Virus record (IMG/VR): IMGVR_UViG_2563366971_000010
Coordinates: 1-24,908 of that record
Origin: a virus
Lineage: Duplodnaviria; Heunggongvirae; Uroviricota; Caudoviricetes
DNA: 24,908 nucleotides
Direction: 5' to 3' (one strand)
In this document: piece by piece, positions 6,001 to 9,000 of the stretch
Position numbering within the stretch: the stretch's first letter is position 1
Layout of the letters: each line of letters starts with the position of its first letter
Made by a program: the position numbers

Positions 6001-9000
6001 CGACTTCACTGAGAACTGCGCCGATTTTGGTTTCAAATACGCCGCCGTCCAGCTCCCCGATAAATGCCTGCACATCAGTACTGCGTTCGCTAGCCATTTT
6101 GCTGCTCCTCATCATATCGACCCTGCAAGGTCGGTTGGTTTCTCCACAAAACAGAGAAGAACACCTGCGGTGGCAGCCGCCCGGATGGATTGGGTTATGA
6201 GCCCGTCGTCCGGTGATGCTCTTCTCTGTTTTGTAAAAAGAGCGGTACCAGCCGGAAGCAAGTGTACAAACTGGTACCGCCAAAGCAGTGGCTGTTGTGG
6301 TGACCGGTGCTGATCTCCGGCTTGCGGTTATTTCAGACTCTCACGGGCGTTTAATTGCCCCGCCGAACAGCTCTTTTCCGCAATAGCTGCAATGTCTTTC
6401 GCGCATCAGCCTGCGCATTCGCCACAACTCTAAAAACAAATGTAGGATATCCAACATGTAAGTGTCAAGAGTTTATGTTGGTTATCCTACATAAAAAGAT
6501 AGGCTCATAAAAAAACCGGGGATACCCCGGTTTTGCGATAGTGAGGAAGATGTGTCAAAAATCCATTATTACTTGTTTGACAAGACCAACTATTCTGCAG
6601 TTTTCACCGCATTCAATAGTTTTATAGTTAGGATTTAGTGGGACGAGATACCTGTTCGGCCAGTCCTCAACAAATTTTTTGAGTGTCGCTTCTTGCCCAC
6701 CATTGATATGGGCAACAACGATTTTTCCGTTAATACACTCTGTATCAATAATATCTGGCTCTACGATAACGATAGAACCTTCTGGTATCGATGGTGAGCC
6801 GAGGGGATTGGTCATTGAATCACCACGGACCCGTAGTGCAAATGCCATTTCTGATACAAGGGCGGTAGTATAAACCCACTCTTCAGCATCTTCTTTCCTG
6901 ACACCAGGCTCCGTCATTGTCCATGAACCCGCCTGAACCCACGAGATGAGGGGGACTTTTTTAACTGCGAATATTTCAGGTTTTAGATTTATCTTTGGTT
7001 CAGGCGAGCCTTTTCCGCTAACAAGCCACAGAGGATCGCATTTAAGTGCGTTGGCTAGGGCTTGAAGGTTGGCTCCATTTGGTTGGTAGTCGTCCTTTTC
7101 CCATCCAGTAACCGTGACACGGTTCACACCAGTCAAATCAGCCAGTGCTTGTTGTGTCAGGTTCAGTTCTTTTCGCCTTTGGCGAATACGATCACTCATG
7201 TTCATCATATAGGCAATCCTACCACATGCCCATGTAGGATTCTTGACATTGGAATGTTGGATATCCTACATTTCTGCTTAACGTAATTTAACGGGAGACA
7301 GAAATGCGGAAATCCGACGTGATTAATTATTTCGGCGGAGTTTGTAAAACCGCCGAAGCCCTAGGTATTAAGCATCCGTCTGTTTCAGAGTGGCCTGAGA
7401 TTATTCCTGAAGGCCGAGCGTACCAGTTAGAAAAAATTACTAACGGGAAACTGAAAGTTGACGTGTCTTTATATCAAAAGACTAACAGTGCTGCGGCATA
7501 AAAACACCACAGAAATGAGGAATTAACCGTGGGTAAAGAACCTGAATGGAAAGTTGATAAACAACCAGCATGGCTGGTGGCAGCAATACGAAGAACGATT
7601 GCTGATTTACCTCATGGCTATGAGGAAGCAGCAGAAATTCTTGGTTTGTATAAATCTGATGATATCACCCCAGCAAAAGATCAATTGCATAACAGACTGC
7701 GTAGCGGTGGGGATCAAATTTTTCCACTTGAGTGGGCCATGGTTTTACAGGATGCCAGTGGTACCAGGCATGTAACAGATGCAATAGCCCGTCGTAGTAA
7801 TGGGGTGTTTGTGCCGCTGGTGGTCATTGATGACATTGACAATGGTGACATTAATCAGCGGCTGATGGAGTCAATAGAATGGATTGGCAAGCATTCCCAG
7901 TACTTACGCAAGGCAACTGCTGATGGAGTTATTGACCAGGCTGAGCGTGAGCAAATCGAAGAGAACAGCTACCAAGTAATGGCGAAGTGGCAGGAGCATT
8001 TAACACTGTTATTTCGTGTTTTTTGTGCGCCGGAAAAGAGTAACGCCCGCGAGTGTGCAGCTCCGGGCGTCGTGGCGTCGATTGCTTCTGGTTGTGGAGA
8101 AACTAACGCATGAACAGTTTAACAACACACTACCGTCGCTCGCAACTGATTGCGCTTCCTGTACCGGGTGGAAAAGCGAAGGTGGAGTATTGCTATGCAG
8201 TGAATGTACCAGGTGACAGGGAAATTGTAACCCACAGATTTGCAGAGTGGGCTGTGGGTGATTTCAACCGGCAGAAGGAGACAGTCCTTTGCAACAAGTT
8301 AACCGCTGGTTCAAAGATCACTACGGAGTGCCCGTCAGAGTCATTCGTTGGGAGCCGGAAACACAACGGGTTATCTACCTCCGTGAAGGCTATGAACATG
8401 AATGCTTCAGTCCGCTCGAACAGTTTCGTCGTAAATTCAGGGAAATAGAGGTCGGTCATGAGCCTGTTAATGACATCCCAGCCCATTGTGATAAATCGTG
8501 ATCTTGCATGCCGTATTGGTCTGAATGAGGCAATTGTGTTGCAGCAGCTTCATTACTGGCTGAATGAAACGAATTCAGGCACTGAGCATGGCGGAATTCG
8601 CTGGGTTTATAACACGACAGAACAGTGGCTGGAGCAGTTTCCGTTCTGGTCAGAGTCCACTCTGAAACGCACATTTGCAAGCCTGAAATCACTTGGGGTT
8701 TTGCGTCGCGAGCAACTCAATAAATCGAAGCGTGACATGACCAACTTCTACACGATCAACTATGAAAGTGAGCTTTTAGAAGAGGTCAAAGTGAACGAAT
8801 CCATCAGGTCAAAATGCACCTCTCCATCGGGTCAAAGTGACCTGATGGATGAGCGCAAAATGACACGATCCATTGGTTCAAAACGACACGCTGTCATCGG
8901 GTCAAAATGGCCCAATGATCTTACAGAGAATACAACAGAGATTACTACAGAGAATAAAACCTCTTCTCGTCCGGACGCTTCGCAACCGGACACGCAGATG

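Follow-up and report, generated by a model that had tools for sequence, protein, structure and literature searches.

What heads the early-left operon of a lambdoid prophage in which no N-like gene is found, and of what does the long leader RNA transcribed there consist? The question is raised by a stretch of viral DNA of 24,908 nucleotides (nt), IMG/VR record IMGVR_UViG_2563366971_000010 (hereafter, the window), which is 100% identical to a prophage in the RefSeq chromosome of E. coli MS20657 and has Stx2c-converting phages, mEp460, SfV and phage cdtI as close relatives. Between the leftward early promoter, PL, and yfdP, the first early-left gene, lies a leader of ~334 nt (~6431 to 6098): no gene is annotated there by PGAP in the identical chromosome, and no N-like protein is found among the early genes by PHROGs or PGAP annotation. 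On both points the sequence-only reading of this locus, which had described a long untranslated leader below PL and the lack of an N-like gene, is borne out; as possible functions, it had offered a put-like antitermination RNA, an N-independent site of Nus factor recruitment, or an attenuator. The analysis favors, with a probability of about 0.6, a leader cassette in which an intrinsic terminator stands between two structured RNA modules, both of them horizontally mobile, in lambdoid prophages of the SfV/mEp460/ST64B type. Module 1, next to the promoter, is identified by sequence comparison as a divergent allele of the STnc100/PasD family of small RNAs (sRNAs); module 2 is a three-way-junction RNA. 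The features of the locus are listed in Table 1.

The mosaic structure of the leader was evaluated by megablast of the window against phages and 5,426 E. coli genomes. Breakpoints fall at 6116, 6283, 6302 and 6428; segment 6293-6428 is found alone on P1-like plasmids, and segment 6121-6283 alone in front of other genes. The leader was therefore treated as a set of separate modules. Homology to phages of other immunity types ends at 6428, exactly below the operators. The two inverted repeats described earlier are both present, 6146-6160/6220-6234 being perfect over 15 nt and 6242-6251/6271-6280 over 10 nt; the former extends ungapped to 25 nt, at 84% complementarity, and forms, as minus-strand RNA, 20 contiguous pairs, two of them G.U. 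The whole leader folds with -137 kcal/mol (z = -4.56; 0 out of 100 shuffles as good). Analyzed by piece, the signal is found in the 89-nt hairpin of module 2 (-45.5 kcal/mol, z = -7.27) and in the terminator hairpin (-21.2 kcal/mol, z = -4.65), while the promoter-proximal 135 nt are unexceptional on the sense strand (z = -0.62). The leader is thus as long, untranslated and structured as had been noted; what had been missed are its two separately conserved RNA modules, which in other phages also occur beside tRNA genes. A long-range pairing, proposed by RNAfold, of the linker AGCCACUGCUUUG with the Shine-Dalgarno/AUG region of yfdP was rejected, the linker being unrelated in other alleles.

For module 2, the minimum-energy fold coincides with the comparative model. 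Covariation was evaluated over 27 distinct sequences of the form present in the window, indicated as class I: 95.5% of the cells are paired, against 42-53% when the partners are slid, seven pairs are changed on both sides, and none of 500 shuffles reaches the score. That the RNA is the minus strand follows from an invariant U.G pair together with the frequency of G.U pairs. The second hairpin of the junction, hp2, changes in length by 3, 11, 20 and 26 nt, which excludes a reading frame across the junction. The apical 14 nt of the first hairpin, hp1 (CGGGCUCAUAACCC, the stem-loop and the preceding C), match the anticodon arm of E. coli initiator tRNA-fMet at every position; the tRNA sequence itself was verified, at 100%, against annotated tRNA-Met genes, four per genome. 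The three apical stem pairs are formed in 51 sequences out of 51: they are invariant G:C pairs in all 27 class I sequences, and the third is G.U in 23 of the 24 class II sequences (see below); a few copies have a CUCAUUA loop. The invariant tRNA-fMet-like arm and the strands of the internal loop constitute a putative binding site for a partner. As judged by eye, complementarity of the CUCAUAA loop to downstream gene starts does not go beyond AUG. The small GC-rich hairpin that follows the junction is retained, with stems GCCCCUACGGGGGC, GGCGGUGGCAGCCGCC and GCCCUUGCAGGGGC, before different first genes.

No match to the junction was found in Rfam 15: the window, searched both at the gathering score and at permissive E-values, gave no match anywhere in the leader, and a class II element gave none either. 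ARAGORN reports no tRNA gene in the window, and none in class I or class II elements at lowered thresholds or in mitochondrial mode; no Rfam tRNA match is found either. A tRNA gene or an attachment-site remnant was accordingly rejected. A search of the literature for tRNA-fMet-like phage RNAs and for ST64B sRNAs found no description; the motif, absent from Rfam 15, appears to be undescribed. In a gammaproteobacterial metagenome-assembled genome (L405, ~3650-3740), a tRNA-fMet-like gene without variable and T arms (...GCTCGTCGGGCTCATAACCCAATCCTGCTCCCGCAACCA) shows how the junction CCCAAUCC may have originated from tRNA-fMet by internal deletion. As to annotation, PGAP reports in relatives a "frameshifted hypothetical protein" across core, terminator and junction (L003, 2972-3291; L006, 2913-3224), and phrog_33599 matches a 49-codon open reading frame (ORF) lying on the junction, at 6112-6261 of the minus strand: both are probably ORF families called on structured RNA.

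The same element exists in a second form, class II. Distant blastn matches place module 2, at 85% identity, in Salmonella ST64B, in the equivalent place, and its apical half in Klebsiella phages, downstream of Q and immediately after tRNA-Asn or tRNA-Arg. A pattern scan collected 45 distinct class II sequences of 70-71 nt, with the layout GGCCUG-A-[CCUGAU GAC GGGCUCAUAAUCC AAUCC AUCAGG]-[variable hairpin]-CAGGCC-R-CCA; in Klebsiella-type phages, they start 6 nt past the CCA of the tRNA gene. Pairing is 99.2%, and compensatory changes are chiefly located in hp2. When class II sequences alone were used to build a covariance model, R2, its best match in the window was 6156-6220 of the minus strand, over model positions 1-71 (43.5 bits, E = 7.4e-9; next best, 9.7 bits). 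The full-length match indicates that the window junction is a homologue, with a 20-bp stem in place of the 6-bp stem and CCA tail. In the window copy, the 20-bp stem is followed by GGAGAAAC and preceded by a terminator, not by a tRNA: lacking the short stem, the RCCA and the upstream tRNA, it represents a separate form, hence "class I". In two loci (L266, L279), the class II element is preceded, instead of a tRNA, by another hairpin ending in ...GCGCCA, which points to arrays combining more than one sort of non-tRNA RNA with a CCA end.

In a scan of one genome per species, class I elements head early-left operons in about 25 species of Enterobacterales. They are always located 2 nt after the U-run of a terminator, and are always followed by GGAGAAAC, by a small GC-rich hairpin with a covarying stem and then by the first gene. 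About 35 non-enteric matches, devoid of flanking structure or tRNA, were dismissed as chance, some 70 being expected for an 18-mer in 1.2e12 positions. In the same genera, STnc100-like cores are found 100-250 nt upstream of the class I junction; ahead of class II elements the distance is ~450-550 nt, and tRNAs occupy the interval. Core, terminator and junction are therefore a conserved unit, apparently akin to RNA islands in which tRNAs are present as well.

The element between the two modules is the intrinsic terminator, whose 13-bp stem includes the 10-bp perfect repeat. At its position a hairpin with GC-rich base followed by 5-7 U is found in nearly all relatives, with stems as different as GGCGGCAUCC/GGAUGCCGC and GUCGGCGUC/GACGCCGAC, among others; the Rfam STnc100 model terminates in a hairpin of the same kind. 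The string that had been taken as boxA-like, CGCTCTTTTTACAAAACA, is indeed present at 6244-6227 of the minus strand: it covers the 3' stem bases of the terminator and the U-run, and its last bases already belong to the helix that follows. Among ~155 related instances, the hexamer preceding the U-run is CCGCTC 70 times and CCGTCC 54 times; the remainder have one of some 20 other variants, CCGCCC, CCGCAC, CCGCAA, GCCCTC and GGCACC among them. CCGCTC represents 2 out of 26 distinct variants, while hairpin and U-run are kept throughout. The boxA interpretation fails because the GCUCUU core is replaced in relatives in which hairpin and U-run persist; from these comparisons, the conserved item at the 10-bp repeat is the terminator, not a boxA. 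The proposal of an attenuator is partly right, since repeat and U-run do form an intrinsic terminator within the leader. A riboswitch-like version of it, with a competing antiterminator helix, was rejected, as unrelated cores are joined to the same terminator.

For module 1, the stretch upstream of the terminator was compared in 120 IMG/VR loci sharing the downstream hairpin. At least three unrelated versions are found at the same locus, and further versions in other genera. In the 120 loci every version starts with GTTGTGG(T/C)(G/A)A and finishes with CACCACAAC; replacement alleles at this locus have GTTGTGGTGAATGCG...CACCACAAC in common. All versions share a fold plan: a closing stem of 8-9 bp (P1), an AAU junction, a hairpin with a 5-bp stem and a 6-nt loop (P2), a variable middle, and a last hairpin (Pn) abutting the closing stem, which in the window allele has 4 bp, a 9-nt loop and a 1-nt spacer. 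Alleles indicated as type 2, found at the same locus, match Rfam model RF02076 over its full 206 positions, terminator included (42.2 and 40.3 bits, E ~1e-6). The ST64B copy scores 35.1 bits and a P1-like plasmid copy, a unit of a tandem array, 37.8 bits; none of them attains the gathering score, 47 bits. Canonical STnc100 cores (GCAUGGUGAAUCCCCC...CACCGGGAGGCACCCGGCACCAUGC) follow the same plan, with swapped middles. A core-only model, R1, was built from canonical STnc100 and type 2 sequences, excluding type 1, to which the window core belongs; the majority type 1 allele, that of mEp460, is found by it with 18.5 bits (E = 0.0087).

Four of the eight pairs of P1 are changed on both sides across alleles. 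The last hairpin covaries (CCGGG-AGGCA-CCCGG versus GGUGG-AGGCA-CCACC), and P2 occurs as GCGCA/UGCGC, GCCCA/UGGGC and GCACA/UGUGC; covariation of P2 and Pn across all alleles was judged by inspection, type 3 and type 4 being out of register in the MAFFT alignment. A descriptor of the architecture was also defined (closing stem of 8-9 bp, AA(U), hairpin of 4-5 bp with a 6-nt loop, last hairpin abutting the stem, 95-140 nt in all): in its strict form, expected 0.07 times per random 24.9 kb, the majority allele and all other alleles fit it exactly once each, in the right place. From the R1 scores, and from G.U pairs present in several of the alleles, the core RNA is assigned to the minus strand, the window variant being an exception. 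The core contains a 25-codon ORF, whose only ATG is destroyed in two variants. Membership of the family is thus assigned because of allelism, shared ends and shared architecture, not because of the model score; on these sequence grounds, module 1 is a divergent allele of STnc100/PasD. PasD is an Hfq-bound prophage sRNA (PMC8550237); STnc100 is the same as EcOnc27 (= sRNA103), and is Hfq-associated (PMC12711010); the two have been judged to be akin, with a common ancestor (bioRxiv 10.64898/2026.05.13.724894).

In type 2 and type 4 alleles the linker just 5' of the terminator carries, across genera, a conserved single-stranded UGCUGUGUGUAGUCUUGG (L344, L400, L416, L379, L406, L248), where the window has AGCCACUGCUUUGG; by its conservation, UGCUGUGUGUAGUCUUGG is a candidate seed or Hfq site. 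In two loci of other immunity types (L001, 4729-4790; L005, 3209-3270, minus strand), an extra hairpin, GAGGGCAUUU...AAGUGCUCUC, fully paired and with two G.U pairs on the sense strand, is located directly 5' of the core. On the P1-like plasmid NZ_CP048611 (L004, 2320-3220, minus strand), at least four STnc100-like cores form a tandem array directly after tRNA-Asn and tRNA-Thr, with GGTAAG...CTTACC hairpin units between the cores; one unit holds a T-arm-like GAGGGTTCGAATCCCTAC. The first core of this array is 98% identical to that of the window.

Several points weigh against the two-module interpretation. RF02076 has no match in the window at the gathering score, and none at E <= 10 over 5900-6700. 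R1 does find 6295-6427 of the minus strand as its top match, in full length and with exact ends, but with a weak score of 11 bits (E = 0.62). Position 6421 is, in RNA sense, a C where most type 1 copies have a U, which leaves a C.A mismatch in P1; accordingly, the window core fits only the relaxed descriptor, with one mismatch allowed, expected 0.8 times per random window and not significant alone. Its sense-strand fold is no better than that of shuffles. The loop of the terminator, exceeding 8 nt, is longer than usual, and for this reason the hairpin is not listed by a simple terminator scan. In other immunity types PL is located ~300 nt further from the core, whose 5' end must there be made differently. 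As PL is repressed in the lysogen, the sRNA would be made only on induction, unlike the late-region members of the family. Finally, the RNA ends, Hfq binding and processing at this leader are all predicted ones.

Table 1. Features of the leader and of the surrounding immunity region, with positions in the window
Feature	Position	Strand	Description
STnc100/PasD-like sRNA core, "type 1" allele	6294..6428	-	Assigned from allelic replacement, shared ends and architecture
Core, closing stem P1	within 6294..6428	-	GUUGUGGCG/CACCACAAC; one C.A mismatch at 6421
Core, interior		-	AAU junction; P2 hairpin GCGCA-GGCUGA-UGCGC; variable middle; last hairpin CCGG-AGAUCAGCA-CCGG abutting P1
Single-stranded linker	6283..6293	-	CAGCCACUGCUUU; between core and terminator
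Intrinsic terminator	6235..6282	-	13-bp stem GGCGGUACCAG(UU).../...CUGGUACCGCU; 15-nt loop; tail C + UUUUU (6239-6235)
Three-way-junction RNA	6146..6234	-	From covariation, folding and the class II model
Junction, stem P1	6234-6215 with 6165-6146	-	20 bp; the 15-bp repeat is its outer part
Junction, hp1	6213-6181	-	5-bp stem; internal loop CGAC/AAUCCA; apical GGG-CUCAUAA-CCC
Junction, apical stem-loop	6192..6204	-	GGG-CUCAUAA-CCC; CAU in the loop, three G:C pairs
Junction, hp2	6180-6167	-	GCGG-CUGCCA-CCGC; short variable hairpin
Conserved spacer	6145-6134	-	GGAGAAACCAAC; conserved after the junction
Small GC-rich hairpin	6133-6118	-	CGACCUUGCAGGGUCG; kept with other stems in relatives
Shine-Dalgarno of yfdP	6110-6105	-	GAGGAG; from the sequence
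yfdP, first early-left gene	5735-6097	-	phrog_204; start codon 6097-6095; followed by yfdQ and yfdR
PL promoter (plausible)	6439..6468	-	-35 TTGACA 6468-6463; 18-nt spacer; -10 TACATT 6444-6439; predicted start ~6430-6432
Two operator-like palindromes	6440-6457 and 6475-6492		18 bp each; the first overlaps the PL -10, the second is just upstream of the PL -35
Hairpin after the repressor gene	6512..6534		AAAACCGGGG-ATA-CCCCGGTTTT; directly after the gene; inverted-repeat search
S24/LexA-type repressor gene	6555-7208	-	PHROGs/PGAP annotation
cro	7304-7501	+	Annotation
CII-like gene	7529-8113	+	Annotation

The assignment of PL is plausible from its hexamers, which match the consensus at 10 out of 12 positions and are identical to those of PR at 7243-7272. 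Between it and the repressor gene, the hairpin at 6512..6534 insulates PL from transcription of that gene. Over 1-6300 only one promoter-like site is found, on the plus strand, where 9.5 are expected; the early-left genes thus depend on PL, no internal promoter having been found in their operon. Downstream of the leader, no strong minus-strand terminator is found in the operon until the hairpin at 948-923, at its end. Further right, a Q-family antiterminator for the late genes is annotated by PGAP. Downstream of Q, on the plus strand, the identical RefSeq record annotates a toxin cargo (~13830-15010), composed of a subtilase-family AB5 binding subunit and a scabin-related ADP-ribosyltransferase. 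Segment 15305-15524 of the plus strand gives sub-threshold Rfam matches (SgrS, 29.4 bits; Qrr, 26.7 bits). A strong terminator, GGCCATCAGAGTTTTGCTGATGGCC + T6, closes the segment shortly before the holin gene, and the segment is probably a terminated late-leader RNA.

Among the functions that might be assigned to such a leader, antitermination comes readily to mind. A put-like element, in which the nascent core or junction would render RNA polymerase resistant to terminators without any protein factor, would agree with the absence of an N-like gene, with the location of a structured RNA nearly at +1 of PL in this immunity type, as for HK022 putL (PMC9378689), with the presence of a terminator between PL and the genes, and with the two adjacent junction hairpins, loosely resembling put stems I and II. 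It is nonetheless improbable. By blastn-short, nothing longer than 8 nt is shared between 6098-6438 and HK022 putL or putR; whole-window searches with R1 and R2, filters off, and a pattern search find one site each, in the PL leader only, with no copy after PR. The activity that characterizes put, suppression without protein factors of terminators lying further on, is blocked by mutations in the zinc-binding domain of beta'; in the window there are no strong minus-strand terminators after the leader for such an element to overcome, and the junction sits past the only strong one. Relatives of the modules are found in Q-controlled late operons and beside tRNAs, some with CCA ends, as expected of free-standing RNAs, and unrelated core alleles are joined to the same terminator. 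Recruitment of Nus factors without N, as at rrn operons, through the boxA-like CGCUCUUUUUACAA, has hardly any probability: the resemblance of GCUCUUU...ACAA to the rrn boxA GCUCUUUAACAA is real, but GCUC is paired in the terminator stem and is GUCC, GCCC, GCAC, GCAA or CACC, among others, in relatives that retain hairpin and U-run, and no boxB- or boxC-like partner, nor N, accompanies it. Neither of the antitermination proposals of the sequence-only reading is thus supported; judging from the sequence, processive antitermination is neither indicated nor needed.

Part of a tRNA gene is often duplicated in phage attachment sites, and the mosaic breakpoints at the module ends could point to a feature of the DNA, either a recombination sequence at module boundaries or a remnant of a tRNA-type attachment site. 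This is highly improbable: the copied part amounts to just 14-17 nt of the anticodon arm and lacks any tRNA 3' half, the location is the PL leader and not the neighborhood of an integrase, and covariation with strand-specific G.U pairs denotes selection on RNA. Small proteins, encoded by the 49-codon ORF, by the 25-codon ORF of the core or by the ~100-codon "hypothetical protein" of PGAP, are scarcely credible, notwithstanding the pseudogene calls in L003 and L006 and the phrog_33599 match: hp2 changes in length, helices vary by compensatory substitutions, start codons are lost, frames differ between alleles, the ORFs have no Shine-Dalgarno sequence and no gene is called in the exact RefSeq match. 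A purely cis-regulatory 5' untranslated region (UTR), in which the long duplex and the small hairpin would do no more than tune the stability and translation of yfdP, with a terminator that only attenuates and no RNA acting in trans, is unlikely, albeit in keeping with a 20-bp duplex suited to RNase III, with PL as sole promoter, and with the fixed distance of junction, spacer and small hairpin from the first start codon before different genes. Both modules are also found outside 5' UTRs: arrays that follow tRNAs contain them, copies with CCA ends exist, and others lie downstream of stx2 (PMC12370729). The invariant sequences of loop and internal loop indicate a specific ligand, not a generic duplex.

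Two mobile RNA modules flanking a terminator are thus the preferred description of the leader. Structures, conservation and covariation, homologies and cassette architecture are direct observations; termination efficiency, Hfq binding, processing and a binding partner of the tRNA-fMet-like arm are inferred, and enter the following scheme. Since the predicted PL start lies 2-4 nt before the closing stem of the core, the first PL product is predicted to be an sRNA of ~195 nt. On loss of the repressor, this would be the first abundant product of PL, with its 3' end at the terminator hairpin and U-run. The terminator would let only part of the polymerases pass into yfdP-yfdQ-yfdR and beyond, acting as a simple attenuator, and module 2, a three-way junction of probable initiator-tRNA origin, would be present only on read-through transcripts. 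Class II relatives, located in phage late operons, with their 6-bp stem, encoded RCCA and position behind tRNA genes, presumably undergo tRNA-like maturation. For the copy in the leader, this role is probably taken by the 20-bp duplex, a potential target of RNase III: excision would free a small, stable RNA and give the yfdP mRNA a new 5' end, shielded by the hairpin at 6133-6118. In a speculative and rather unlikely extension, the phage would use the junction, with a tRNA-fMet gene as its source, to imitate the anticodon arm of the initiator tRNA, as a decoy or ligand for whatever recognizes this arm. Host toxins that act on initiator tRNA by cleavage or modification (VapC-type nucleases, AtaT-type acetyltransferases), methionyl-tRNA synthetase, initiation factor IF3 and the 30S P site would be candidate targets; release would occur early after induction for class I, from the PL leader, or late for class II, through tRNA-like maturation. 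If true, such a mimic could protect or reprogramme translation initiation.

For N-less lambdoid prophages, such as Stx2c-converting phages, SfV, mEp460 and ST64B, the proposed description explains the head of the early-left operon by an sRNA, a terminator and a tRNA-derived RNA, rather than by nut or put sites. The STnc100/PasD family gains several alleles undetected by Rfam, one of them wired directly to PL; variants of a canonical member are known to be associated with clinical outcome in O157:H7 infection. The junction, a motif supported by covariation and found in about 25 species of Enterobacterales and in many Klebsiella-type phages, may provide a lead into phage interference with translation initiation or with defences that target tRNAs; its description also bears on annotation, as gene callers place pseudogenes and the phrog_33599 ORF family on this RNA.

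Among known systems, the StxS sRNA of Stx phages, said to have been described by Sy, Lan and Tree in PNAS in 2020, reportedly arises by early termination of the PR' transcript: there, too, a phage promoter gives a short terminated sRNA first and an operon mRNA by read-through. The leader differs in using PL, which is repressed in lysogens, and in its unrelated sequence, its sRNA being a predicted one. The lambda N leader, which contains an RNase III site, likewise forms an extended duplex after PL and ahead of the first early-left start codon; that of the window, for which cleavage is predicted, closes a conserved junction whose loop is invariant and which is also found away from leaders. RNAs resembling tRNAs and matured by RNase P are well known, as the C4 RNA of P1/P7 and tmRNA, and the thrS operator is a case of anticodon-arm mimicry. 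With tRNA-fMet the junction shares 14 nt of the anticodon arm and, in class II, an acceptor-like stem and RCCA tail located 6 nt behind tRNA genes. It is not a cloverleaf, however, having neither D arm nor T loop, and in the window copy the stem is 20 bp long and CCA is lacking. The leader recalls lambda nutL (boxA plus boxB) and rrn boxA by its location, after PL and before the first gene, and by its GCUCUUU string; this string is unconserved, lies within a terminator and is accompanied by neither boxB nor N. HK022, a lambdoid phage without N, also has a structured RNA directly downstream of PL, putL (PMC9378689); it features both putL and putR, each with two stem-loops in ~70 nt, whereas the window leader is a single site, with no correspondence in sequence or structure. 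STnc100/PasD, from E. coli and Salmonella, have the same plan as the window core, followed by a linker and a Rho-independent terminator, in lambdoid prophage hosts. The window allele, missed by Rfam, differs from them in P2, in the middle and in the last hairpin, and is located at +3 of PL in the early-left leader, where known members are found downstream of Q or stx2: both this allele and its position are new to a family of sRNAs that was already known.

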